Shown piece after piece: positions 12,183 through 64,000 of a DNA stretch of 64,000 bases. The stretch comes from an uncultured Bdellovibrionales bacterium. GTDB lineage: Bacteria > Bdellovibrionota > UBA1018 > CAIPTA01. The stretch lies in NCBI GenBank assembly GCA_964551325.1, contig CAZKBU010000002.1, positions 269,861-333,860 on the forward strand, given 5' to 3'. The position numbers and the translations under genes were made by a program. Numbering within the stretch: position 1 is the first letter of the stretch; every line of letters begins with the position of its first letter. The notes under the pieces were generated by a model. That model worked only from the letters and a program-made list of their open reading frames with translations, made no database searches and had not been told where the DNA came from.

Positions 12183-13175
12183 ATGCGCGTGATGTTCCAA
12201 GTGTTACTTGCAGGCCTACTCACCGCTCTGTTTGCTCAGGCAGCGGAGAGCAAAGGCGAGTTTGTAACCGTTGGACGCGGACAACAGGTTTGGGTGGAGT
12301 GGACGGAGCCTAAGCAAGGAAAGCCGGTACTTGTTCTCCTCAACGGCCTCACCTACTCCACTAAGAACTGGAACGATCTCAGTCGAGCTCTTGAGCCATC
12401 CGGATTTGGCATTCTTCGATACGACATGAAGGGCATGGGCAAGACAATGCTGAACGGCCCATTGCCGGTGAACTACTCCGTCACCTGGCAAGATCAGGTG
12501 AAAGTTCTCAAAAGTCTTTTAGGTAAGCTGAAATTGAAAAGGGTGCACCTTGTTGGCCTCAGCTACGGGGGTGGAATTGCCGCTGGCTTCTCCAATGCGT
12601 ATCCGGAAATGGTCGCCTCCACCATTCTGCTCGCCCCTTTCACGGAACCACTTCCCTCTATGGACTCCTGGATCCGCCAGCAAGTGGCCCTCACCCGGAT
12701 TGCCCAGCCTTGGAATCCTTCCACCGACGATGAACTCTACGATTTCTTTCTGAAGAACTTCATCTATTCCACCTACCCGGCAGCCGAACCGAACGTGCTC
12801 GAAAACCCCTGGAAGCTGGAAGCCATCTTTCGCATGGTGCAAGGTATTCGGAAGCTCGACGCGAAGAAGGAAACAGAGAACCTGAAACCTCGATCTGTCT
12901 ACCTCGTGGTAGCCAAAGAGGATCAGTATATTCCTCGTGGCGTAATGGACGCCTACTGGGAAGCAGTTCCGAGCCGGGCTCGCGCATCGCGCGTGATCGC
13001 CTCTTGGACGGAGCACAAGATTCCCGAAGCCGTACCACAATTTACGGCCGGCCTCATTCGTCTCTTAGTGGAGGGCGATCCAGCCCTGAGAAAAGGTGAC
13101 ACTTTCGACGCCTCCACGTTTCGAGGCGAAATCTGGAATGAGCGAGCCAAATTCAAAGTGCCAGGAGTGCGATAG
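12183..13175 (+). CDS. Secreted alpha/beta-fold hydrolase
   Basis: 330 aa. Signal peptide 'MRVMFQVLLAGLLTALFAQA'. Nucleophile elbow 'GLSYGG' (GxSxG). Confidence 0.7.
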   Translation: MRVMFQVLLAGLLTALFAQAAESKGEFVTVGRGQQVWVEWTEPKQGKPVLVLLNGLTYSTKNWNDLSRALEPSGFGILRYDMKGMGKTMLNGPLPVNYSVTWQDQVKVLKSLLGKLKLKRVHLVGLSYGGGIAAGFSNAYPEMVASTILLAPFTEPLPSMDSWIRQQVALTRIAQPWNPSTDDELYDFFLKNFIYSTYPAAEPNVLENPWKLEAIFRMVQGIRKLDAKKETENLKPRSVYLVVAKEDQYIPRGVMDAYWEAVPSRARASRVIASWTEHKIPEAVPQFTAGLIRLLVEGDPALRKGDTFDASTFRGEIWNERAKFKVPGVR

Positions 13176-13945
13176 TGATTAAGCTCAACATTCGGATTGT
13201 TCCCCAGCTCCTCCCCTTCCCCACCGTATTTCTCCCGGGAAACCTGGCGGCAAATCTTTGGTGGGAACCAGCTGTGTCGGAGTGGCAGAAGCGTGGCGGC
13301 GGAAAGCATCCGGCGATTTTAATCGAATGGCGTGGACTCGGCGGTAGCCAAGACGGAATGGATCGTCCATTTAATGTAGAGTCACTCGCCGAGGACGTAG
13401 TGGAGAACATTTGTGCCTTAGCTTTGGGTCCAGTGAACCTAGTGGGACACTCTACGGGCGGGATCATCGGTGCTGCCGCAATGGCGAATGCGCCAGAAGT
13501 TTTTCACCGTGCCATTCTCCTCGACTCCGTGGCAGCCACAGGGATTCAATTTGGTCCCGAAATGTATGCCGCTTTCGAAGCGATGAGCAAAGATGAAAAC
13601 CTATGTGCAACGGTCATTCTGTCGACGATGCACGAAGCGAATTTAAGTAACGAACTTCGGACCGGAATTGCGAAAGCCGCCTTCCATGTGCACCCGAAAA
13701 TCTGGCGCGCCGTTCCCGACATGCTGAACTCCCTGGATCTCAGGTCGGAACTCCGAGGCGTGAAGGCGCCCACACTCGTTCTTCATGGCGAACATGATGT
13801 GCTTCTTCCGATGGAAGGGTCCGAGGAACTTGCCAGAATTATTCCTGGAGCGCGTTTTTATAAAATTCCGGGCCGCGGGCATTGCACCAATGTGGAGGCG
13901 CCCGGCCTCTTCGTAGACTTGGCAAACCACCATCTCTTTGGATAA
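13175..13945 (+). CDS. Alpha/beta-fold hydrolase
   Basis: 256 aa. Nucleophile elbow 'GHSTGG', C-terminal 'HGEHD...PGRGHC' acid/His region. Start overlaps the previous stop. Confidence 0.7.
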   Translation: MIKLNIRIVPQLLPFPTVFLPGNLAANLWWEPAVSEWQKRGGGKHPAILIEWRGLGGSQDGMDRPFNVESLAEDVVENICALALGPVNLVGHSTGGIIGAAAMANAPEVFHRAILLDSVAATGIQFGPEMYAAFEAMSKDENLCATVILSTMHEANLSNELRTGIAKAAFHVHPKIWRAVPDMLNSLDLRSELRGVKAPTLVLHGEHDVLLPMEGSEELARIIPGARFYKIPGRGHCTNVEAPGLFVDLANHHLFG

Positions 13946-14156: not shown

Positions 14157-14171
14157 TTGGCACATCGATTG
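14157..14171 (+). promoter_or_regulatory. Orphan sigma-54 (-24/-12) promoter-like element TGGCACatcgaTTGCg
   Basis: Exact GG-N10-GC spacing with full TGGCAC and TTGC cores, inside a 380-bp AT-rich intergenic region. It points toward the 3' end of the convergent anti-sigma gene. Confidence 0.35.
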
Positions 14172-14324
14172 CGATAGATATGAGCAACAGGTTGAGCCAA
14201 AAGTTCGACCCGTGAAAAGGCTGCTCTTTACGGACAATACTTTCATTCCTTGCCACCTAAGGAATATTCCCCTCCATAGAAAAGTTTGGTCCGAAAAGAG
14301 TGGCCTTTTGACGTTTCGGCGGGC

Positions 14325-14684
14325 TTACCAGCGGGTAGCCAATGCCCACAAAACACCGCCCAATATAGCGGTGACCAGAAAAACAGCTCCCATCATCACC
14401 CAAAATTCCCCACTGCGGAGAAACTTCCCAGGATCAAACTTCTCGCGAAGCCTCCCCTGCAGGAACTGCCGAGCCAGCGCCGTTAGCTCCGCAGCATACT
14501 CCACGGGCGGAGGGATATCAGGGATCCACCGATCCACCCGAGCCATGTCGTTTCGATAGGCAGCCGCACGAAGGCGCATTTCTTCGCTGGAAGCCAAAAG
14601 CGCCGCTATCTGGCCGTTCAGCTCGCCACTCTCAGAGGCGCCTTCCAAAAAATCCTGTAGCTCCACTCGCGAAGGAAGTCTCAA
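14325..14684 (-). CDS. Putative anti-sigma factor (single C-terminal TM helix)
   Basis: 119 aa. 4-bp overlap with the upstream sigma-like gene. C-terminal TM 'FWVMMGAVFLVTAILGGVLWALA'. No conserved catalytic motif. Confidence 0.4.
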   Translation of the reverse strand: MRLPSRVELQDFLEGASESGELNGQIAALLASSEEMRLRAAAYRNDMARVDRWIPDIPPPVEYAAELTALARQFLQGRLREKFDPGKFLRSGEFWVMMGAVFLVTAILGGVLWALATRW

Positions 14685-50662: not shown

Positions 50663-51493
50663 TCAACGTCGAAGATTTCTGTCCATCAGGGCATCCAGCC
50701 AACGATCCGGCAGCCATCCCACAATGCGCATTTGAAGCGCCAACCCACGCGCCCCCACCACATACCGAGTGCGCGGAACGCGCGCCGTGAGAGCCGCAAG
50801 AATCACACGAGCCACCCGGTCAACGGGGGCGGCACCTCGGGAGGTGCGCTCCACATCGAGTTCCACCGCTTCCAGATCTTTCCCGTAAACTTCCTCTAAG
50901 TCTTTCGACAGCTTTGGCTTCGCTTGCACACTCTTTTCCCAAATCGGAGTAATGGTGGGGCCAGGTTCCACCACCACCACTTGGCACCCGAATTGCCCGA
51001 TTTCACGGCGTAGAGCATCTGACAATGCTTCCACCGCAAATTTTGAAGCACTGTAGGGGCCAAGGTATGGGGTGGTTGCGAGCCCACTCACGGAGCTCAC
51101 GTTTAGTACCCTGCCTTTTGTGCGCCTTACCCAAGGAAGCATTGCTTGAGTGACTCGAACAAGGCCGAAAAGATTCACCTCAAATTGTTCTTTCCACTTG
51201 CCGAGATCAACACCTTCGACGGGCCCGCCCACGGCGATACCCGCATTATTCACAAGATGGACGACATCAGCCGCTTCCAATCGATGGCGAATCGACGCGA
51301 CGGCCGTTCTCACGCTTTCGTCACTGGTTACATCCAAGACAACCGGCTCCACACCTCTCACGTCTGCCCAGGCAACCGCATCAGAAACCTTACGAACCCC
51401 AGCCAAAACATGGAACCCACTAGAAGCAAGCAACCGTGCTGCGGCCATCCCAATCCCGCTTGAAGCACCCGTTACAAGAACAATATTTTTCAT
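50663..51493 (-). CDS. SDR-family oxidoreductase
   Basis: 276 aa. 'VLVTGASSGIGMAAAR', 'NNAGIAV', catalytic 'YSASKFAV'. Confidence 0.8.
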   Translation of the reverse strand: MKNIVLVTGASSGIGMAAARLLASSGFHVLAGVRKVSDAVAWADVRGVEPVVLDVTSDESVRTAVASIRHRLEAADVVHLVNNAGIAVGGPVEGVDLGKWKEQFEVNLFGLVRVTQAMLPWVRRTKGRVLNVSSVSGLATTPYLGPYSASKFAVEALSDALRREIGQFGCQVVVVEPGPTITPIWEKSVQAKPKLSKDLEEVYGKDLEAVELDVERTSRGAAPVDRVARVILAALTARVPRTRYVVGARGLALQMRIVGWLPDRWLDALMDRNLRR

Positions 51494-53913: not shown

Positions 53914-54240
53914 TTACGAGAGGTGCTTAGCCACCAGTTTCGTCATTTCGAACATGTTCACGGTAGCCTTACCACCGAACACAGCCTTCAGCTTAGCATC
54001 GGCGTGAATGTTACGACGTTGCTTAGGGTCCTGGAGCTTGTTCTTCTTGATGTACGCCCAGAGCTTCTTGGTCACTTCCGTACGAGGAAGCGGCTTGGCG
54101 CCTACTACAGCAGCGAGGCTGGCGCTCGGGGTGAGAGCCTTCATGAAAGCAGCATTCGGCTTGCGCTTCGTCTTAGCCTTCTTGGTAGCCTTCTTAGTGG
54201 TTTTAGCTTTCTTAGCAGTTTTCTTGGTCTTCTTTGCCAT
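53914..54240 (-). CDS. SWIB/MDM2-domain protein with N-terminal lysine-rich histone-H1-like tail
   Basis: 108 aa. N-terminal 'AKKTKKTAKKAKTTKKATKKAKTKRK' followed by 'MKALTPSASLAAVVGAKPLPRTEVTKKLWAYIKKNKLQDPKQRRNIHADAKLKAVFGGKATVNMFEMTKLVAKHL', which matches the SWIB/MDM2 fold consensus. Confidence 0.75.
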   Translation of the reverse strand: MAKKTKKTAKKAKTTKKATKKAKTKRKPNAAFMKALTPSASLAAVVGAKPLPRTEVTKKLWAYIKKNKLQDPKQRRNIHADAKLKAVFGGKATVNMFEMTKLVAKHLS

Positions 54241-54285: not shown

Positions 54286-54402
54286 GTTTTCAATAGGAAA
54301 AATCAAAATTTCACAGGAGAAATGACGTTTTTCCGAAAATTCGCACGTTTTTCATAGGGGAAAACGCAAATTCTCCTATGAAAAACACCATTCACCACTC
54401 GA
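54286..54402. repeat. Repeat-dense regulatory region upstream of the SWIB gene (imperfect 13-nt inverted repeat plus reiterated (T)ATAGGRAAAA motifs)
   Basis: AGGAGAAATGACG (54315-54327) is inverted relative to CGCAAATTCTCCT (54365-54377). Direct repeats 'CGTTTTTC' x2. 'caatagGAAAAAtc', 'catagGGGAAAAcg' and 'ctatGAAAAAca' recur three times. Confidence 0.4.
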
Positions 54403-56739
54403 TCAAAGACCAGAAACAGCCTTCTGCCATAGGGAGTTGATCCATGAAGATCCGCCACCAGAGCCTTCTCCCGGCCGCTTGAGATCCAAATTTGCTAGGC
54501 GATCCAATCGTCGGAACTCCTCATACACACAAACCCGCTCGCGGAAAGGCTTTCCCTTCAGGCGCTCCTCCAAAACTTGAAAGGAGAGCGAAAGTCCAGC
54601 CTCTGGAGACACCACCTTTGATCCACGACAGATCCCAACATCCACCTCGCTCGGCCACTCCTGCCCCGTGATCAACGCTAGAATGCACAGTTTTCCGAGG
54701 CTCTCCCGATTCGGCGCCTGTGGACCACCCTCTGCTGGCTCTCCCGACTCGTCGGCTGCCTTCTTAAGCCCCTGGAGCACCGTCCCCAGCGCGGGCGCTG
54801 AGAACCGACGGAACTGAAGCAGCGTCGCCTGAGAAATCGTCTGGGCCTGGGATAAATCCTGCCTCACGTCGAGCGGAGTGAGGTGTGCTCGCTCCAAAAG
54901 AAGTTGGAGATCTGATCCCGCCAAGCGATAGAGGTCGTCGATCTCCCGAGGCCCCTCCCCTCGCAGGTATCGGGTAGTGATATCGGTGGTAACGAGCCCA
55001 GTCAGGACCGACGGCAAGTAAACGTTGTTATTCTCCAAGCGAAAAGCCTCAAAGGTCTTGGAGACCACCCGAGCAGCCGGGGACTCCCTATAGCACTTAT
55101 GAGGCTCATCCTTGCCTCCGGCGTTTGGCGGACAAGGCACTTCTTCCGGCTGATCAGATACAGCCTTTGGGTGAATGAGGTCGCCATAAACTCCGGTCAC
55201 ACGACTTCGAACCTGGTCCACGAGAATTCGATCCCTCTCTCCGTCTGCCCCGGGCCCAAAGGCGTAGTTCGTGAGGAACTCAAACAAGCGTTCCATCGCC
55301 CGGGAAGGCGATCGTTTATCCACGCCGGAGCGGGTGAAATCCCGAACCAACGACGACAAGTCCACATTCACCTTCTCGTTGAATTCCCGCACAACAGCCA
55401 GGTAGCGCCTCGCCCATAGAGCATTGAAGTTCTCCACAAAACCCTGGAGATCCGCTCCTGAAGATATCGATACTGCCGACACCAGGCGATCCGGGTCTCC
55501 GTTAAAATCGCCCGGAGGGGTCTTCTCGGGCCCCGCAACGACCTTCACGAAGTCCATCACGGACTCAAATCCGGAAAATGCCCCGCCGCTGGCCTGCCAG
55601 CCGGTTCCATGATTGTAGTAAAACACCCGAAACAGGTCGCGAAGGAATCGGCGAACCAGGTCAGCCTGGTCGTTCACATTTCTCACCCGATCTACATCAC
55701 TCCGGGTGCTCGCCATTAAACCGTCAGCCGCCCGTCTTTGGTTTTGGCTCTGGGTGAGCTTACTGAACTGCTTGTTGATTCTCTCGGCTTGCTCGGAGTC
55801 CACGGGAGCCCCGCCCCCGTTCACCACACGATCGAGCCAACCGTAGAGCACAGGCAGGTGCCGATCCATCAGCTCCACTCCGTAGAAGAACGGCAAAACC
55901 TCCCCCTTCGGTTCGCGAATAGCCACGTCCACAAGGGTGCGCGCATCCTTGGCCCTGCAATAGTCGCGACTCATTGCCTCCAATCCACAGGTGAATGCCG
56001 CCCCCAGCCGAGCACGCTTGGATTCAATAATCTCCTTGGTGAGGGGAATCTGGGACGTCATCTCCACGCCGAGTCGAAGCAGGTCCGACACCACGGAAGC
56101 GCCCAGGCCCACGGCTGGCGAGGCAAAGCTCCCGGCCAGCTCCGCAATGCCTGCCGCAACCTGAACGGCCACTTGCGGGTTGTCCTTATAACAATCCGTA
56201 AGCTGGTGAGAGGCCGATAAGAGGTCTCGAAGGTGCTGGCTTACTCCGCTCATCCCCCAGGAGAAATTGCTCTTATAACTCGCCTGACGGAGGTAGGAAG
56301 CGTCAGCTCTCGCCAACGACAGCTCGTAACGAGTCCCCGCATAATACGACAAGAGCGCATCCTTAACGCTCGGATCGATACCCGGCTGTCCAATCGCGAG
56401 CAGTAGATCATTTCCTGCCTCGTCGAATCGACGCTCCTTACGGCGCGCGCTGTCGGCCTCTAGTGCTCTAAGCTCGGCGCGCAGGCGCAAAGAAGCGCCC
56501 TGGGCATTCATTAATGCGGGTGAAGTGGAGCAACTCTTCTTCTCCTTCAAGGATTCCAGAAGCTGCGTAAGGCTCTCCGATCGCTCCAAGGCGGCCCGAG
56601 TCCAAGGACCAAGACTACACCCCTGGGAGTAGGCAGCGATCATCTGATCTACTACCGGTACGGCTTCCTGCTCTGGCGCATTGCAAGAAAAGAGAGAAAA
56701 AGGGGTGATTACCAAAAGAAGAAATCGTGTCAGTTTCAT
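54403..56739 (-). CDS. Large lipoprotein of unknown function
   Basis: 778 aa. Lipobox 'FSLFSC'. No recognisable catalytic motif. Last gene of the minus-strand secreted-protein run. Confidence 0.5.
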   Translation of the reverse strand: MKLTRFLLLVITPFSLFSCNAPEQEAVPVVDQMIAAYSQGCSLGPWTRAALERSESLTQLLESLKEKKSCSTSPALMNAQGASLRLRAELRALEADSARRKERRFDEAGNDLLLAIGQPGIDPSVKDALLSYYAGTRYELSLARADASYLRQASYKSNFSWGMSGVSQHLRDLLSASHQLTDCYKDNPQVAVQVAAGIAELAGSFASPAVGLGASVVSDLLRLGVEMTSQIPLTKEIIESKRARLGAAFTCGLEAMSRDYCRAKDARTLVDVAIREPKGEVLPFFYGVELMDRHLPVLYGWLDRVVNGGGAPVDSEQAERINKQFSKLTQSQNQRRAADGLMASTRSDVDRVRNVNDQADLVRRFLRDLFRVFYYNHGTGWQASGGAFSGFESVMDFVKVVAGPEKTPPGDFNGDPDRLVSAVSISSGADLQGFVENFNALWARRYLAVVREFNEKVNVDLSSLVRDFTRSGVDKRSPSRAMERLFEFLTNYAFGPGADGERDRILVDQVRSRVTGVYGDLIHPKAVSDQPEEVPCPPNAGGKDEPHKCYRESPAARVVSKTFEAFRLENNNVYLPSVLTGLVTTDITTRYLRGEGPREIDDLYRLAGSDLQLLLERAHLTPLDVRQDLSQAQTISQATLLQFRRFSAPALGTVLQGLKKAADESGEPAEGGPQAPNRESLGKLCILALITGQEWPSEVDVGICRGSKVVSPEAGLSLSFQVLEERLKGKPFRERVCVYEEFRRLDRLANLDLKRPGEGSGGGSSWINSLWQKAVSGL

Positions 56740-56808
56740 AGGAGACTGAGCCTAATGAACGCCCAGAATGGGAGCAAACAGTTTCAGCCAAATTTCGAGA
56801 ATAACAAC

Positions 56809-57420
56809 TCAGTGCCGGATACGGAAAGCCCCTTGCACCTGCACTCGACGCGGCCCCATGTCGAGCCGCTTAACAACACGCAGCTCCCACTCGGTGTCGA
56901 GCTCCACCACGAACAAGCGAGCGTCGTCGTAGAACCGAAGCATCTCTGCCAGTGACTGATCCGAAAACGAAAGGCCATCCTGCTTGTTCACAAGAGGGGT
57001 GGTTCCGTCGAAACTAAACTGGTAATTGCGCTGAACGGAACTCTCTCCGCGAGCGTCTTTTCTCCAACTAACTGGCCCCGACACTTCAATGCCCCATATG
57101 TCTCTTGGCCCTAGGTTCGTGCACGGAAATCGACCATTCACATAATGAAAGTTCGCAGTGCGCCGACGATCCTGGATCGTCACCAAAAATTCCTCAGAAG
57201 TTACCTGATAGGCACCATCCTTAAGCTCGGCGAGGCCCCCTGGTAGCAACTTCCCGGGATCGGTCCGGAACTGGAGGGGATCATACCCCGCGGGGCACTC
57301 CTTCACGGTCCGCTGCGCTTTGCCCTGATTCCCGGCCTTTTCACTCGCGAACGGATCAATTTTATCCTGCCCCGTGCCGCAGCCCACAAGAACCATTGTT
57401 AAAAAAATCCAAGTCCGCAT
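56809..57420 (-). CDS. Lipoprotein of unknown function
   Basis: 203 aa. Lipobox 'LVGCG'. Confidence 0.5.
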   Translation of the reverse strand: MRTWIFLTMVLVGCGTGQDKIDPFASEKAGNQGKAQRTVKECPAGYDPLQFRTDPGKLLPGGLAELKDGAYQVTSEEFLVTIQDRRRTANFHYVNGRFPCTNLGPRDIWGIEVSGPVSWRKDARGESSVQRNYQFSFDGTTPLVNKQDGLSFSDQSLAEMLRFYDDARLFVVELDTEWELRVVKRLDMGPRRVQVQGAFRIRH

Positions 57421-57430
57421 TGCTGCCTCC

Positions 57431-58582
57431 TCAGTAGGCCAGGCGCTTCAACTGAAAGAGCTCCACCTCAACATCTTGGGGCAGATTCGTTCCAGCGCTC
57501 CCGGTGAACCCATCCAGCGTAATCCGCTCCAAGGCAACATAGCAATCCCGGGCGATCTTCGTTTTCTTGAATTCCTGAATGCAGGTCCGGAGATACATAT
57601 CGTCGAACCGGAAGAAGAGGTTGTGATTAATACGGTTGTAGATCAGGCCAAGAAGATACAGTGCTTCGCCCTTTGCGGGAGATACTCCTGGAGTTTCAAG
57701 AAGTTTGTGTAGATACACCGAGGCGCGGAGACGGCGAATATGGAATCGCCGCTCAAAGTCCCCCATAAGTTCCATATCGTCACTCTTCAACAGTTTCTTA
57801 GCTGCCACGAGAAGCTCGGAGTCACTGGCGCCTGCGGCCATCGGCTTTTCCTTTTGCCAGGTCTTAAGGTCCTTCACCCAGGCGAGCAGGTCTTGTTGCA
57901 TGAACTGAGGAATCTCCTTAGCCCCGGAAATTTTTTCGAAAAACGCGGCGGCACCGGTAGGGTTCGGCTCCACGCGAGTATGGAGCACAGCTAAGTTCAA
58001 AAGAACTCTTCGAAGCCCCGATGCCCCGATCTTATTGCCGGGAAACCCTTGAGCAAGCGCTTCAAACGTCTTCTTCGCTTTCGAGAACTGCCGGGTGGCA
58101 AAGTAGAATTCCGCTTGCTCCATTTCCGAAGCCCCAGACACCTGGGAGTCGAGAAACAGCTCCGTGCTGCTTGAGCCCCTGCTGTGGCAGCTGATGCACA
58201 TCTGGAGCGAGCTTTGCAGCATATAGCGAGCAAAGTGTTTGTTGTTTTCCCGGAAAAATTCACTGGCCTGGCCCACATGGCCTTCGATCATCTGAAGGTT
58301 GGCACGCAGGGCGAGATCGTCCTGGAAAAGCTTTTTGTCTTTCTTCATTCCCGCGAGGTGGGCTGAAAGATTGCCGAGGGTGGCGGTAATTTTCCCTTCG
58401 TTGCTTTTGTCGAAAAATTGCGACTCGCTCACCAGATATTGTTCCAGTGCCCTCACGTCCTCCAAAAGGAGTCGCATCCCGGGTTTAGGATCGGGTTCTG
58501 CGCCAGCGATCAGAGAAATCAAAAGGGAAAAGATTACGGTGCCACGAATCATCGACGAAACCCTCCAAGCGGTTCCGTTCAA
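57431..58582 (-). CDS. Secreted helical protein with a single CxxCH motif (possible mono-heme c-type cytochrome-like / TPR-like protein)
   Basis: 383 aa. N-terminal signal-like 'MIRGTVIFSLLISLIAGA'. 'LQMCISCHSRG' contains the CxxCH heme c attachment motif. Confidence 0.4.
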   Translation of the reverse strand: MNGTAWRVSSMIRGTVIFSLLISLIAGAEPDPKPGMRLLLEDVRALEQYLVSESQFFDKSNEGKITATLGNLSAHLAGMKKDKKLFQDDLALRANLQMIEGHVGQASEFFRENNKHFARYMLQSSLQMCISCHSRGSSSTELFLDSQVSGASEMEQAEFYFATRQFSKAKKTFEALAQGFPGNKIGASGLRRVLLNLAVLHTRVEPNPTGAAAFFEKISGAKEIPQFMQQDLLAWVKDLKTWQKEKPMAAGASDSELLVAAKKLLKSDDMELMGDFERRFHIRRLRASVYLHKLLETPGVSPAKGEALYLLGLIYNRINHNLFFRFDDMYLRTCIQEFKKTKIARDCYVALERITLDGFTGSAGTNLPQDVEVELFQLKRLAY

Positions 58583-59091
58583 TTATTGGGTATTTTCTTC
58601 CAAACGTAAATGAGGGGATCGTCGCCCAGGCTCAAATGAATCTGAAGATCGCCCTCCTGGGACAAGGAAAACTCTGTCGACGAGGTGCGGCCAGCCTGCA
58701 TGTCGGGGTCGGCTCTGCAGTCGCGATGATTCTTTGGGTTCACCCAGGTGATCTTATCCACAATACGATTACCCTCGATCCGAAACTCACCCTTACGCTC
58801 ACAGAGGTCGTTTTCCCCTTCGTGCCACCACCAGAGACGGCTCTGCCCATCAGCGGTGAAGGAGTAGTGAAGTCGCAGGGTGGCTTCCGGAGGTTCCGGC
58901 ATCACGATCCCGCGAAAAACTTTCTTATAGAAAAACCAATGCCCCTCCACATTCGGGCTCACGCCTGGATCGGGAACATCCGCAAACTGGGGGCGCTGAG
59001 CCCCCATCAGAAAAATCGCTAACCCTGCCAGAAAAAGTGGCCGAAGCCGGTCAAATGCCGCCACCCACCAACCTCCAGCCACGCTCGGCAA
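58579..59091 (-). CDS. Hypothetical secreted protein
   Basis: 170 aa. Hydrophobic N-terminus. 4-bp overlap with the downstream gene and 41-bp overlap with the upstream protease ORF. Confidence 0.4.
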   Translation of the reverse strand: MPSVAGGWWVAAFDRLRPLFLAGLAIFLMGAQRPQFADVPDPGVSPNVEGHWFFYKKVFRGIVMPEPPEATLRLHYSFTADGQSRLWWWHEGENDLCERKGEFRIEGNRIVDKITWVNPKNHRDCRADPDMQAGRTSSTEFSLSQEGDLQIHLSLGDDPLIYVWKKIPNN

Positions 59092-60505
59092 GAATTCGCT
59101 GAACTTCTAGACCTTCCTCTGCCGTGCAGATCCCACTCATGGCACTGATCACGGCAGGAGCAAAGTCGTCGAACCGAGCTCCAGAGCCCAGCCGCACCAG
59201 CGTGCGGAAGGCGATTTTGTGAGCCTTTTCCGCGCCGATTTTTTCTCTCATGTCCCAAAAAGTAGCTCCGATGATCGTGCCATTCTTGTAAACACCCTTC
59301 GAGAAATCCTGGTAGGCCTTAAGCTCGTTCTTCAGCGTGCGGCGGAACGGAGCCTTCAGATAACTCACCTCTCCCATGTAGGGGTTGTTGAGAATAAATG
59401 CGGTAAAAAGATCGGCGAACCCCTCGTTGAAGGAGCCACCCTCTCCTTCCGACGGAAGGCCAGCATACACGTCGATCACTGCGTGAATAGTTTCGTGAAC
59501 CACGATCGACGGATCCTTGAGCATATCTCGATAGACCTGACCGTCCCCGGTGCCCAAGTAGATCTGCGCGTTATGGTAGAAGGCGTTGTTGCTTACGCCG
59601 TTCTCACCAATATGCGTCTTCACCTGAATGGGGCGATTGAGCTCAACACCGAGCTGGTTCTTCATCCAGCGCAAAGCGTTGTCCATGAAATAGTAAACCT
59701 GAACCATCTCAAACTGCGGCTGAGTGGGCTCGAAGTTAAAGATCAAATCCCGCGACCACACGTTCAGATTCAGCCCGCTCGTGATGGCGAGTTTGGCGCT
59801 ACTCAGGCTGCCATCGCCTACAAGGCCATACAGCGTCTGCTCTGAGAGATCGCTCGCCTTAGGTCCGCGAGGAAACACCCGTGCCCGACCATCGGCACCG
59901 TTCACACCGGTCAACCCCTGTTCGGTAACACGGCCTTTCGCGTCCACTTTTGCAAAATGAATGTTCTGTTCAAAGCGATCCAGATACTCCACCCGCCAAT
60001 AGGGATAGAACCCCCTGCTTCTCTCCCATCCAATCTCCACCCGTGGCGGAAAAATATAACTGGCACTGGCCATCGAACTCACTTGCTCTTGAGCCTTGCG
60101 AAGACCAAACGCACCGTTAGCATCCATCGCGGTAACTTCGGCGAGGAGATGGTCCGGAACATACTTCATCACTCCGCCGGTGCTGTAAACTGCCTGCCCG
60201 GAGGGGGAAAACACGGTTTGAATCCAAGTGGAATCGACTCGGGCAGGGCCCACATATTGAGCCGATCGCCCAACCACTTCTCCGGCACCGCGAAGAACCA
60301 TGTCCTTCATGGAGAGAAGACCAATGTTCACCTGATTGTCGGGGGTGTCGCCCTTCTGGCCCATCACCTTGACGGGCACATTCCTCGCACCATCGAAAGC
60401 CCGCCACGCCTTCGGCATCCAGCGGAACCGCTGAACTTCAGGAGCGCTTTCTCCCGCCGTAACAATTCCAGGAGCCAGTAAGATAAATGCCAAAAAAGTC
60501 TTCAT
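59051..60505 (-). CDS. Secreted zinc metalloprotease, thermolysin-like (M4-type HExxH...NExxxD)
   Basis: 484 aa. Signal peptide 'MKTFLAFILLAPGIVTA'. 'VVHETIHAV' (HExxH), with the third zinc ligand ~20 aa downstream in 'GGSFNEGFADLF' (compare thermolysin 'GGINEAISDIFG'). Confidence 0.6.
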   Translation of the reverse strand: MKTFLAFILLAPGIVTAGESAPEVQRFRWMPKAWRAFDGARNVPVKVMGQKGDTPDNQVNIGLLSMKDMVLRGAGEVVGRSAQYVGPARVDSTWIQTVFSPSGQAVYSTGGVMKYVPDHLLAEVTAMDANGAFGLRKAQEQVSSMASASYIFPPRVEIGWERSRGFYPYWRVEYLDRFEQNIHFAKVDAKGRVTEQGLTGVNGADGRARVFPRGPKASDLSEQTLYGLVGDGSLSSAKLAITSGLNLNVWSRDLIFNFEPTQPQFEMVQVYYFMDNALRWMKNQLGVELNRPIQVKTHIGENGVSNNAFYHNAQIYLGTGDGQVYRDMLKDPSIVVHETIHAVIDVYAGLPSEGEGGSFNEGFADLFTAFILNNPYMGEVSYLKAPFRRTLKNELKAYQDFSKGVYKNGTIIGATFWDMREKIGAEKAHKIAFRTLVRLGSGARFDDFAPAVISAMSGICTAEEGLEVQRILAERGWRLVGGGI

Positions 60506-60633
60506 GGAGTTTCCCCGCCATCTAACTAAATCGAGCCTTGTTTATATCCTATCCTTCCATGGCAGGAACAGAAAGGGCCCCCCTCCTGCAAGGGAGAGGA
60601 GCCCTGGGAGTTTTACCCGTTTTCGGTGGGACT

Positions 60634-61047
60634 TTATTCCTCAACCGAGAGGGACTTTTCCCAGTAGGTGCCATCGCCGCTCATGAAGCGGATCGCGTGA
60701 TCGCCAGCGGCCAGTTTGCCGAGCTGCACTTCCTTGGAGAAGGGCACCAGCACCATCAGGCACATGCCTTCGCTCACCGTTGCAATCGCACGCACTTCGT
60801 GGAGAGCAGGACCCACATGGTTCACGGCAGTGCTCTTAAACCGGTAGCAGCTGTTCGGAAAGAGTCCGTTCACCACCACGAAAGCGTCAGAGTTCGTGTC
60901 GAATCCGCTCGGTACATAAGCATCGTTAATGCTCACTACTGTTTCGCGCGTCTTCGGTTGGCCTTGATCATCGGAAGCAAACGCCACCGAACCGAACGAT
61001 GCCACCACTGCTGCAAACACCACTACATTCTTCATCATTTTGTTCAT
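60634..61047 (-). CDS. Small secreted protein of unknown function, first gene downstream of the sigma-54 promoter
   Basis: 137 aa. Signal peptide 'MNKMMKNVVVFAAVVASFGSVAFA'. GGGGG RBS. Confidence 0.5.
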   Translation of the reverse strand: MNKMMKNVVVFAAVVASFGSVAFASDDQGQPKTRETVVSINDAYVPSGFDTNSDAFVVVNGLFPNSCYRFKSTAVNHVGPALHEVRAIATVSEGMCLMVLVPFSKEVQLGKLAAGDHAIRFMSGDGTYWEKSLSVEE

Positions 61048-61106
61048 ATAGAACCCCCTAGTTCCTTTCCTTGAGTTCGGAAGTTTCTGCTTCCGCCAAC
61101 CACTTG

Positions 61107-61122
61107 AGCAACCAACGTGCCA
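61107..61122 (-). promoter_or_regulatory. Sigma-54 (RpoN) promoter: TGGCACgttggTTGCt with perfect -24 GG / -12 GC spacing
   Basis: Plus-strand agcaaccaacgtgcca is the reverse complement TGGCACGTTGGTTGCT. It lies 60 bp upstream of the 60634..61047 gene start. An NtrC-family sigma-54 activator is encoded 1.5 kb away. Confidence 0.6.
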
Positions 61123-61256
61123 ATCTCCAACTGAAATCTACTTGCACCTCACGACAAAACCCCAATATCGACGGGACATCTTGTCCAACGCTCGGGGCCA
61201 ATGGGCCCTTTTGCATCGCATCCTCATCAAAATAGTTTTCCCACGAGAAAAATAAC

Positions 61257-61282
61257 GGGCCCCGGGCATTAGCCCGAGGCCC
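61257..61282. promoter_or_regulatory. 11-bp inverted repeat GGGCCCCGGGC-atta-GCCCGAGGCCC (one mismatch), candidate enhancer (UAS) about 140-170 bp upstream of the sigma-54 promoter
   Basis: Read directly. The distance is appropriate for a bacterial enhancer-binding-protein site. Confidence 0.35.
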
Positions 61283-61474
61283 GAGCAGACGGGGTTCCAC
61301 TACTCTGAAATCCACACACATACCGGAGGCCGTCGCGCCCTCCCTGAGGCTGTTTGCATTGCCTGTGCCAGCCTGAGGAGTGAAAACTCAGCCTCGCTAG
61401 AGTTTTTGAGCAGAAAAATAGTCCCCCACTCTCCCAACTTGTCTCGTAACGGTGGTTAGCCTAGAGTCGCCGCC

Positions 61475-62587
61475 ATGGATGAGAGAATTGTAAACATGAT
61501 TGAAAAGCGGATTTTTTTCCGCTGCGTGGAGTACTCCACGGAAGGAATCATGATCACCGACGCCAGCAGCCGTCTCCTCTGGGTGAATAAAGCCTGGCAG
61601 CGAATGTATGGCTACAGCATCGACGAAGTGCTCGGAAAAACCCCCCGAATGCTTCACTCCAAGCATCAAAATGACGCATTCTATCAGACCATGTGGATCG
61701 ACATTCAATCGCCCTCCAAAGGGTTCTGGAGAGGGGAAATTGTAAACAGGTCGAAAGACGGCCGAGAAGTTCCCGTCCTACTGACGATCAATCCCTACAA
61801 AAGCCCGGAAGGAGAAATTGAGGGCTACATGGGAATCGCTGTGGATATGACCGAGAAAAAGCAAATGGAAGCTCAAATTCTCCAGGCCGACCGCCTGGCC
61901 TCTATCGGTCTCTTGGCCTCCGGTCTCGCACATGAAGTAGGAACCCCTCTTGGAGTGATCCGAGGACGAGCGGAATACCTGCAACAGCTGGCAAAAGACA
62001 ATGACAAGGTCGCCAAGGGTTTGGATGTGATCATCTCTCAGATCGATCGCATCTCTAAACTCATCTACTCCCTGCTCAATCTGGCGAGATCGGAGAAGAG
62101 TGAGCAGGCGCGCCCCGTGAACATCCTCAGGGCCTGCACCGATGTTAAAAATCTTCTCGATCAAAAGTTTCAACGCTCTGGCGTTGAGCTACGAGTAGAC
62201 GTTCCCGATCACGCCACGGTTCAGGCCGAGACCGACAAGCTGACCCAAGTGATCCTGAATCTTGCGATCAACGCGCTTCACGCAGTCACAAAACGCCTCG
62301 GGAAAACCCCCGAGCCGAAGGGCCTTGTTCACATCCATGCCTTTGAGCACGAGAAGGAGTGGGAGCTCCTTGTGGAAGACAACGGCACTGGAATCAGCAG
62401 AGACCACCTGAAGCTTCTGTTTAAACCCTTTTTCACCACCAAAGATCCTGGCGAGGGCACTGGACTTGGCCTTGCCATCACAGAACAAATCATCCAGTCG
62501 TGGGGCGGCACGGTTCAAGTGGAGTCAGTGGAAGGCACCGGATCCCGCTTTAAGCTAAAGATCCCGAAGGGCTCCCTTAAACTCTAA
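61475..62587 (+). CDS. PAS-domain sensor histidine kinase (NtrB/AtoS-like, cytoplasmic)
   Basis: 370 aa. N-terminal PAS, H-box 'LAHEVGTPLGVIRGRAEYL', N-box 'LNLAINALHA', G-boxes 'DNGTGI' and 'GTGLGLAI'. Confidence 0.85.
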   Translation: MDERIVNMIEKRIFFRCVEYSTEGIMITDASSRLLWVNKAWQRMYGYSIDEVLGKTPRMLHSKHQNDAFYQTMWIDIQSPSKGFWRGEIVNRSKDGREVPVLLTINPYKSPEGEIEGYMGIAVDMTEKKQMEAQILQADRLASIGLLASGLAHEVGTPLGVIRGRAEYLQQLAKDNDKVAKGLDVIISQIDRISKLIYSLLNLARSEKSEQARPVNILRACTDVKNLLDQKFQRSGVELRVDVPDHATVQAETDKLTQVILNLAINALHAVTKRLGKTPEPKGLVHIHAFEHEKEWELLVEDNGTGISRDHLKLLFKPFFTTKDPGEGTGLGLAITEQIIQSWGGTVQVESVEGTGSRFKLKIPKGSLKL

Positions 62588-64000
62588 GACCTTCGGGAAT
62601 ATCAGCCATTGAGGGCGGAATATCCATCATGCCGTGCTCATCATCCGCCACCCAGCCATACTCCCGTTCTTTGCGATAGAGAGTGCGGCGATTGATCCCG
62701 AGCACCTGCGCGGCTTTTTCCTTCCGACCACCCGAGCGATCAAGAACGAGCCGAATGTAACGTTCTTCGAGTTGCGCCAAGGTTGGGAAATCATTCGTGG
62801 CCGATTTGAAGAACTGATCCGGGGAGCCCACTTCCGCGTCAGGAATATCCATCTCGTCGATCCATTCGCTCTGGGCCAATACAACGGTGCGCTCCACGAG
62901 GTTTTCCAGCTCGCGCACGTTGCCTTCCCAGCGCAGCTTCATGAGTTTTGCCATCGCCGGCTTAGTGAAGCCGCGAACCCGAGACCCATTGGCGGCCGAA
63001 TATTTGGCCATGAAGTGCTCGGCAAGAAGCGGAATATCTTCCACCCGGTCCCGAAGGGCAGGAATGGCGATCGGGATCACGCTCAAGCGATAGAAGAGGT
63101 CTTCCCTGAAACGACCTTCGCGGATCGCGGCTTTCAAATCTTTGTGAGTTGCGGCGATGATGCGAACGTCCACATCGATCAAATTGTTGTCGCCCACGGG
63201 GCGAACCTTCCGCTCCTGCAATACGCGAAGAAGCTTAGCCTGAAGCTGGGGACTCATGTCTCCGATTTCGTCGAGAAACAGGGTGCCGCCGGAAGCCTCT
63301 TCGAAGAGACCACGCTTACGCTGAATCGCGCCCGTGAAAGATCCCTTGGCGTGACCAAAGAGTTCGCTCTCCAGAAGGGTTTCGGGAATTGCCGTACAGT
63401 TAATGGCGACAAATGGCTTTGAAGCGCGCGGCCCCGAGTAGTGAACCGCCTTGGCGATCACTTCCTTTCCGGTACCGCTTTCACCGGTGATGAGCACGTT
63501 GGCCGTGCTTTGAGCCACGCGGTTCACAAGATCGAAAATGGCCCGCATCGAAGCGCTTTTCCCGATGATGTTGCCCATCTTAAAGCCCTGTTTCACTTCG
63601 TTACGAAGAAGGGCGTTCTCGCGGGAAAGGCGGCGACGCTCGAGGGCGCGCTCCACGGTGACGCTGATCTCAGCCAGTTTGAAGGGTTTCACGAGGTAGT
63701 GATAGGCGCCGTTCTTCATCGCCTCGATCGCCGTGTCGATAGAGCCAAACGCGGTGATCAGAACCATCGGAACGTCGGGATTCTCTTTCCGCATCTGGCG
63801 GAGAAATTCCATACCGTCCATTTGCGCCATCTTGAGGTCGGTGATGATCAAATCAACATCGGGACCACCGAGCCCATGTGCCTGCTTCTTAAACTCATCC
63901 AGCGCCATCAACGCCAACGGGAAGACCGTCGTGCGATAACCTTCGCTCGTGAGAAAGTCCTGAAGAAGGGCGCGCATCTCGCCATCGTCGTCTACGATCC
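62577..64000 (-). CDS. Sigma-54-dependent response regulator (NtrC family), 5' end beyond window
   Basis: The reading frame continues upstream of the listed Met (in-frame '...IVDDDGEMRALL' is a receiver-domain motif), so the N-terminus is cut by the window edge. AAA+ 'GESGTGKE', the sigma-54 contact motif 'GSFTGA' (GAFTGA), C-terminal Fis-type HTH 'INRRTLYRK'. Confidence 0.9.
   Translation of the reverse strand, partial: IVDDDGEMRALLQDFLTSEGYRTTVFPLALMALDEFKKQAHGLGGPDVDLIITDLKMAQMDGMEFLRQMRKENPDVPMVLITAFGSIDTAIEAMKNGAYHYLVKPFKLAEISVTVERALERRRLSRENALLRNEVKQGFKMGNIIGKSASMRAIFDLVNRVAQSTANVLITGESGTGKEVIAKAVHYSGPRASKPFVAINCTAIPETLLESELFGHAKGSFTGAIQRKRGLFEEASGGTLFLDEIGDMSPQLQAKLLRVLQERKVRPVGDNNLIDVDVRIIAATHKDLKAAIREGRFREDLFYRLSVIPIAIPALRDRVEDIPLLAEHFMAKYSAANGSRVRGFTKPAMAKLMKLRWEGNVRELENLVERTVVLAQSEWIDEMDIPDAEVGSPDQFFKSATNDFPTLAQLEERYIRLVLDRSGGRKEKAAQVLGINRRTLYRKEREYGWVADDEHGMMDIPPSMADIPEGLRV

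Follow-up and report, generated by a model that had tools for sequence, protein, structure and literature searches.

The minus strand of a 64,000-nucleotide (nt) stretch of an uncultured Bdellovibrionales genome (contig CAZKBU010000002.1), referred to as the window throughout, carries a cluster of six genes for exported proteins. The cluster follows a predicted sigma-54 (RpoN) promoter, P1, and lies beside genes for a sensor kinase and an NtrC-family sigma-54 activator. A first-pass annotation of this DNA had listed these genes, their signal peptides and lipoboxes, the motifs HETIH...NEGFAD, CISCH and GSFTGA, and the PAS kinase, and all of them are present. The features on which the analysis bears, from the regulatory genes to the end of the cluster, are listed below in window coordinates; the six genes are called g1, the protease gene and g3 to g6.

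62577 to 64000, minus strand: NtrC-family response regulator and sigma-54 activator, with a receiver domain, an AAA+ domain carrying GSFTGA and an HTH_8 domain; the 5' end of the open reading frame (ORF) lies beyond the window
61475 to 62587, plus strand: soluble PAS-HisKA-HATPase sensor kinase, divergent from g1
61355 to 61370, minus strand: P2, a second -24/-12-like element, TGGCACaggcaATGCa, matching at 10 of 11 positions
61246 to 61283, minus strand: intrinsic-terminator-like hairpin, with a GC stem of 12 base pairs (bp) and a 4-nt loop, followed by TTATTTTT; the "enhancer" repeat of the first-pass annotation
61187 to 61173, no strand assigned: candidate activator-binding dyad (upstream activating sequence), TGGACAAGATGTCCC, with its centre about 84 nt before the predicted transcription start
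61122 to 61107, minus strand: predicted sigma-54 promoter P1, TGGCACgttggTTGCt, of the form TGGCAC-N5-TTGCT, with GG at 61121-61120 and GC at 61109-61108
61078 to 61095, minus strand: 5'-terminal stem-loop of the predicted transcript, CGGAAG-cagaaa-CTTCCG, starting at about +2
60634 to 61047, minus strand: g1, a Sec-exported beta-sandwich protein of 137 amino acids, family PF27154 (ORF11_beta), with two invariant cysteines
60564 to 60605, minus strand: terminator-like hairpin after g1, 13 bp, folding energy about -25 kcal/mol, tail TTCTGTTCCT
59051 to 60505, minus strand: M4-like (thermolysin-type) zinc metalloprotease of 484 amino acids, with a signal peptide, HETIH and NEGFAD
58579 to 59064, minus strand: g3, an exported lipocalin-like protein predicted to form an 8-stranded beta-barrel; overlaps the end of the protease gene
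57431 to 58582, minus strand: g4, an exported helical protein of 383 amino acids with an invariant CxxCH, a candidate c-type haem site
56809 to 57420, minus strand: g5, a clade-specific lipoprotein of 203 amino acids, lipobox LVGC
54403 to 56739, minus strand: g6, a clade-specific lipoprotein of 778 amino acids, lipobox LFSC, of no recognised family

P1 agrees with the -24/-12 consensus TGGCAC-N5-TTGCW at all 11 positions, with exact GG/GC spacing, as the first-pass annotation had claimed for the minus strand. It stands 59 nt from the ATG of g1 (61047), in front of which lies GGGGG at 61058-61054. The window holds three exact copies of TGGCAC-N5-TTGC where 0.18 would be expected, a number that no shuffle in a set of 100 reached. 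A genome scan for relatives of g1 gave 55 loci, almost all of them labelled as metagenome-assembled genomes of Bdellovibrionota, and closer relatives came from four metagenome contigs (L066 to L069; g1 identity 68-94%); promoter counts cover the 58 g1 genes with sufficient upstream DNA. A -24/-12 match at 10 or more of 11 positions precedes 26 of these 58 genes, where the background rate in the same loci (3.6e-5 per position) predicts about 0.24, and a match at 9 or more positions precedes 32; the matches lie 37-81 nt from the start codon (median, 54.5 nt). The consensus derived from the g1 loci is tTGGCAC-N5-TTGCTcTa, with no base preference in the spacer or the upstream flank. Since spacers and flanks are unrelated between loci, it is the element itself that is conserved and not a block of alignable DNA. 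L066, L067, and L069, for example, keep the hexamer and TTGCTC, while the spacer gttgg of the window becomes ggtcg, acgga and acggg. The strains L001 and L008 (about 93% identical overall) show no mismatch over 61160-61047; elsewhere they diverge by 2-3% synonymous changes in g1, by about 8% in the protease gene and by 12-14% farther upstream. Because Bdellovibrionota relatives keep the element in front of the same small exported-protein gene, P1 is very likely a genuine, functional sigma-54 promoter, with a predicted transcription start near 61096.

The transcript predicted from this start would open with the stem-loop at 61078-61095. L067 keeps the stem as AGAAG/CTTCT, that is, with both sides changed, and the 5' untranslated regions of the 32 promoter-bearing loci fold better than their shuffles (mean z, -2.0; p 5e-10). 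In one clade (L016, L020, L022, L023, and L041) a further conserved block, AATGCGGTGCTCAC, lies 10-25 nt upstream of the -24 element and may be bound by a second factor, for instance IHF or a repressor. A public gene call of 101 amino acids that covers the promoter region (ORF 61058-61321, minus strand; L001 31-336 and L008 78-383) was rejected as non-coding, its strain substitutions being spread 9/9/7 over the three codon positions.

Upstream of P1, an unbiased test of all 6-mers in the 200 nt before the -24 element of 32 loci returned GAGACA (29 against 2.1 expected; p 3e-23) and GTCTCA (27 against 2.2 expected; p 2e-20) as the top two words. Both are concentrated at -90 to -40, often as GAGAC-N5-GTCTC dyads that come in pairs 33 nt apart. 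In the window, the best candidate for an activator site is TGGACAAGATGTCCC at 61187-61173, which aligns with sites in L066, L067, and L069; the window and L069 share the arms GGACA-N3-TGTCC around different spacers. The upstream neighbour in L069, where g1 is 94% identical, is an hsp20-like gene with its own terminator (L069 1-260) and not the kinase gene. Dyad and promoter are intact there despite the different neighbour, and the regulatory region therefore moves together with g1.

The first-pass annotation had placed the enhancer elsewhere, in the inverted repeat at 61257-61282, and this assignment had to be abandoned. The stretch that holds the repeat (61396-61256) is absent from the syntenic loci L066, L067, and L068, all of which retain the promoter, and L067 and L068 retain the kinase and the gene order as well. 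On the minus strand, the repeat (61283-61256) forms 12 pairs followed by TTATTTTTCT, so that 61283-61246 has the GC-rich stem-loop and T-run on the transcribed strand that make up a terminator. Two substitutions have altered the stem in L001 and L008 (C-G to U-G and U-G to C-G), leaving the T-run intact and the pairing maintained only via G-U; such G-U-only pairing points to an RNA structure on the minus strand and is unsuited to a DNA site. Furthermore, the repeat is unlike the GAGAC/GTCTC motif enriched in the 32 loci. It looks like a lineage-specific intrinsic (Rho-independent) terminator. In L069, the terminator of the hsp20-like gene sits at the equivalent place. The possibility that the lineage-specific stretch is a relic of such a gene was considered and rejected, as no significant DNA or protein similarity was seen and only the position of the terminator is common to the two. 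BLAST searches of 61230-61474 against the window and all loci found no further copies, and the stretch is thus not a repeat element.

The regulator encoded beside the cluster matches the Pfam family Sigma54_activat (E 3.8e-74) and possesses the GSFTGA loop, and the kinase is without a membrane segment. About 20 loci have a regulator homologue (54-73% identity, with one at 46%) and a PAS kinase no more than 10 kb from g1, the layouts being convergent, divergent or tandem. That the linkage survives rearrangement argues for a functional pairing and bears out the earlier description of an NtrC-type activator and a PAS kinase as neighbours of the cluster. In the window, the 3' ends of the kinase (plus strand) and regulator (minus strand) genes converge and overlap by 11 nt (62577-62587); the same layout is seen in L067, with a 4-nt overlap. 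It is an unusual one, two-component pairs being normally co-transcribed. The suggestion that the module is nitrogen responsive found no support. All scores of the regulator against the NCBIfam equivalogs lie under their cut-offs (AtoC, 463 of 714; NtrC, 433 of 559; ZraR, 423 of 760; for the NtrC model TIGR01818, 432.9 against 558.6), as do those of the kinase against the AtoS, ZraS, and NtrB models (NtrB model PRK11073, 88.2 against 240), and no gln or nitrogen genes are found near the locus.

Downstream of P1, nearly all of the 55 genome loci retain g1, the M4-like protease gene and g3 in this order, while g4 is present in a subset and g5 and g6 are present only in the closest relatives; L067 keeps the full six-gene order. 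The co-orientation and the conserved order agree with the first-pass view of the cluster as one operon, but g1 is followed, in the window as in most relatives, by a terminator-like hairpin. It had been missed: the 128-nt gap after g1 holds a 13-bp GC-rich hairpin at 60605-60574, which together with its interrupted T-rich tail (60605-60564) has the anatomy of a terminator. Folding of the 70 nt after the g1 stop codons of 56 loci gave a mean z of -2.5, against -0.47 for random control windows (p 2.5e-8). The hairpin of L011, L066, and L067 has the classical form of a GC stem with a T-run; across loci, its position is conserved and its sequence is not. A search of the gap between g1 and the protease gene in about 45 loci found no sigma-70 or sigma-54 motif that scored better than shuffles, and in about six loci this gap is only 0-9 nt. 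The most economical reading of these sequences is a single operon in which the hairpin acts as an attenuating terminator or as a stabiliser. Given the conserved hairpin after g1, the promoter probably yields mainly g1 mRNA, with the protease cluster expressed by read-through; on this reading, g1 mRNA would greatly exceed the downstream message in abundance.

Collectively, these findings point to a typical two-component, enhancer-dependent sigma-54 transcription unit, a reading to which we assign a probability of about 0.7. According to this model, the soluble PAS histidine kinase (61475-62587) would respond to its signal by phosphorylating the adjoining NtrC-family regulator (62577 to 64000 and beyond). 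The regulator would bind a dyad of the GAC-N5-GTC type that lies about 60-85 nt before the promoter (61187-61173 in the window) and spend ATP to open the complex of the sigma-54 holoenzyme at TGGCAC-N5-TTGCT, for a start near 61096. The RNA would open with a small protective 5' stem-loop and encode g1, the highly conserved exported beta-sandwich protein. Past g1, the conserved terminator-like hairpin would stop, or at least stabilise, most transcripts and so make g1 the main product, and read-through would supply lower amounts of the M4-like metalloprotease, the lipocalin-like partner, the CxxCH protein and the two lipoproteins.

Several observations weigh against this model. About 26 of the 58 g1 loci have a changed -12 GC (TTGA, TTGT, or GTTA) or lack a visible motif, and sigma-54 dependence may not be universal among them. 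No ORF with an RpoN box was found in the window or the relative loci, the presence of rpoN being implied only via the activator. Of the 10 arm positions of the window dyad, 3 do not agree with the majority motif, and a clear second dyad was not found in the window. In the hairpin after g1, the tail TTCTGTTCCT is T-rich but interrupted and has no clean U-run, which makes its termination efficiency uncertain. Lastly, the sigma-70 consensus used to search the gap may not fit Bdellovibrionota, so that an internal promoter is possible.

Three other accounts of the transcription of the cluster were weighed against this two-component sigma-54 model. That the P1 match arose by chance, with g1 transcribed by a housekeeping sigma factor only, is scarcely credible: the loci without a canonical GC at -12 would fit, but exact matches are expected only 0.18 times per window, 26 of 58 loci have the motif in the corresponding position where about 0.24 would be expected, P1 is free of substitutions between strains, and a search of 61048-61474 found no sigma-70-like site. 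The scheme first proposed for this DNA, in which P1 drives an uninterrupted six-gene operon and the 61257-61282 repeat is the enhancer for the NtrC-like activator, can draw on the position of the repeat about 150 nt upstream of the -24 element, inside the usual enhancer range, on six genes that are co-oriented and mostly tightly spaced, and on the absence of a recognised internal promoter in the cluster. It is nevertheless very unlikely, as the repeat belongs to a 140-nt stretch missing from L066-L068, consists of a GC stem and a T-run on the transcribed strand with G-U-compatible variants ill-suited to a DNA site, and bears no resemblance to the GAGAC/GTCTC motif of the 32 loci, and as the conserved terminator-like hairpin after g1 interrupts the proposed operon. 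The third account takes g1 to be monocistronic and to end at 60605-60574, with the M4 cluster expressed from its own, unrecognised promoter in the 128-nt gap. The classical T-run terminators after g1 in L011, L066, and L067 speak for it, as do a TTACGA-17/18-TATAAT/TATGAT sequence that overlaps the post-g1 hairpin in L066 and L067 and a TATAAA in the gap of the window. However, the sigma-70-like scores in the gap of about 45 loci are no better than those of shuffles, a gap of 0-9 nt in about six loci is too short to hold either a terminator or a promoter, and the strict order g1, M4, g3 argues for co-expression. We consider this arrangement unlikely.

P2 raises a separate question. The weaker second element reported in the first-pass annotation, TGGCACaggcaATGC (61370-61356), is present, albeit as a one-mismatch match of which about four are expected per window. 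Its GG and GC are kept in L001 and L008 as TGGCATgggcgATGCa, and it is absent from L066-L068. Together with the terminator-like hairpin at 61283-61256, P2 could delimit a sigma-54-dependent non-coding RNA of about 95-100 nt (approximately 61346-61247), comparable to the LuxO/sigma-54 Qrr units of Vibrio. This proposal appears doubtful to us. In its favour, the 10 of 11 match falls inside a 427-nt intergenic region in which only about 0.015 such matches would be expected, and L001 and L008, which carry three changes in the motif, retain its GG, GC and spacing. Also in its favour are a GAGACA half-site 75 nt before P2 and a strong terminator, without a gene to terminate, 75-110 nt downstream; the putative RNA folds with a z of -3.5, and the ORF that overlaps it is non-coding. 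On the other hand, the stretch evolves fast, with a divergence between strains of 12-14% that exceeds that of the protease gene and with insertions and deletions in the RNA body; it is lineage specific, being missing from L066-L068; and neither an Rfam match nor a further copy of it was found. No Rfam family reached its gathering threshold anywhere in the window, and a search of 60500-61500 at E <= 1 yielded no meaningful match. Moreover, one-mismatch matches are common, and the terminator found at the same place in L069 belongs to the upstream hsp20-like gene, so that the window hairpin may be a rearrangement relic or an insulator.

Turning to the encoded proteins, the first-pass statement that none of them except the protease has a recognisable family holds for g5 and g6 and has to be revised for g1 (PF27154), g3 (lipocalin fold) and g4 (invariant CxxCH). 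The term "secretion module" does not suit the cluster either, since its products are exported proteins and not a secretion apparatus. Searches of g1 and g3-g6 against NCBIfam, PADLOC, and PHROGs gave no matches, nor did PDB sequence searches with g4 and g6. The family of g1, PF27154, comprises about 1000 clusters. The protein has many close relatives. Tandem paralogues of g1 occur in some loci (L044, L055, and L063), and elsewhere the domain is found in fused two-domain proteins of about 240 amino acids; among the paralogues and fusions P0214-P0287, the fused forms adjoin methionine-synthase/MTHFR genes. The two-domain PF27154 relatives stand in unrelated contexts, with no M4 protease and no -24/-12 motif.

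The claim of a thermolysin-like protease is upheld by Pfam matches above the gathering scores (Peptidase_M4, 29.9 bits; M4_C, 28.1 bits) and by a match to aureolysin (E 2e-10, residues 267-460). Its zinc ligands, HExxH and the downstream Glu, are intact. The catalytic, transition-state residues depart from those of thermolysin: Ser occupies the position of Tyr157, 11 residues after the second His, and Tyr occupies that of His231, where it is invariant in about 50 orthologues (GVYKNG here and GGLYHDSG in relatives; residues approximately 337-410). No Pfam match to an FTP/PepSY propeptide was found in residues 1-260, and the N-terminal region of about 260 residues has no assigned family. The protein is thus M4-like by its zinc ligands and Pfam matches and departs from the family at Tyr157, at His231 and in the propeptide.

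The g3 protein is 170 amino acids long, or 161 if the start of the copy in a public collection (P0124) is used. Its 8-stranded barrel fold and the adjacency of its gene to that of the protease recall lipocalin-like protease inhibitors. Compared systems are the potempin/KLIKK-peptidase pairs of Tannerella forsythia (PMC9890683) and, in general, small beta-barrel inhibitors whose genes adjoin that of the protease. The g3 protein is possibly the cognate inhibitor or a chaperone of the M4-like protease. In g4, the CxxCH (MCISCH, residue 129) is kept without exception in 12 homologues, the most distant of them at 23% identity; a weak TPR match was found and no cytochrome match in Pfam or PDB. It is possible that g4 is a mono-haem c-type protein of no assigned family. 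Homologues of g5 were found only in L067 and L068 (27% identity), and g6 has a homologue in L067 (46% identity).

Among known systems, the closest layout is that of ZraS/ZraR and zraP in Escherichia coli, with PilS/PilR and pilA as a further analogue. In both, a kinase and an NtrC-type regulator are encoded beside the sigma-54 promoter of a small exported-protein gene, with dyad sites within about 100 nt upstream, and pilin genes share the arrangement of a small gene followed by a hairpin. The TGTC-containing upstream activating sequence seen here recalls a reported PilR site, a likeness that we treat as a lead only; no citation for that site was found, and literature searches for the locus system and for the PF27154 name found no paper. 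There are also clear differences. The regulators of the locus reach no NCBIfam equivalog cut-off for ZraSR, NtrBC, or AtoSC; the kinase is soluble; the kinase and regulator genes converge and overlap; and g1, as a beta-sandwich whose signal peptide is of the ordinary Sec type, resembles neither ZraP nor a type IV pilin. The protease shares with the MEROPS family M4 (aureolysin, thermolysin, LasB, and HapA) the use of HExxH and the Glu of NExxxD as zinc ligands, but it has Tyr for His231, Ser for Tyr157, no detected FTP/PepSY domain and low identity to the known enzymes.

The regulatory logic of the locus is textbook, ordinary enhancer-dependent regulation. What the analysis supplies is a well-supported, testable member of a sigma-54 regulon in Bdellovibrionota, where, to our knowledge, sigma-54 control is almost unstudied, together with GAGAC-N5-GTCTC as a motif that the activator may bind. 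The uncharacterised family PF27154 is placed for the first time in a regulatory and genomic setting, as is a divergent M4-like protease branch with Tyr in place of His231. Going further, we raise only tentatively, as a speculative extension, that the locus represents a Bdellovibrionota-specific, signal-controlled system of envelope or extracellular proteolysis. Its dominant product would be g1, whose conservation, higher than that of the protease, would suggest an abundant structural or substrate-targeting protein tied to the predatory lifestyle; in addition, the lineage may have gained a small RNA driven by sigma-54 between the kinase gene and g1. Such a proteolysis unit may be made up of the PAS kinase and the NtrC-type activator, the sigma-54 promoter, g1, the M4-like protease with its Tyr variant and the lipocalin-like partner; the CxxCH protein may or may not belong to it.

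The two other exact copies of TGGCAC-N5-TTGC in the window lie far from the cluster. One, TGGCACatcgaTTGCg at 14158-14172 (plus strand), falls in a gap of about 380 nt between convergent genes (13175-13945, plus strand, and 14325-14684, minus strand), with AT-rich sequence upstream and no plausible ORF start downstream; this orphan sigma-54-like site could drive a non-coding or antisense transcript. The other, at 50982-50996 (plus strand), lies within an ORF on the opposite strand (50663-51493) and is probably a chance match. Beyond the end of the cluster, between the g6 stop codon (54403) and a gene for a SWIB-domain protein (53914-54240, minus strand), four copies of a motif of about 16 nt, TTTTCMATAGGRGAAA, occupy 54286-54386. 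Two of them form an inverted pair of 16 bp with 94% complementarity (54347-54362 and 54371-54386), and the copies could mark the 3' end of the operon or serve as operator sites of the SWIB gene.

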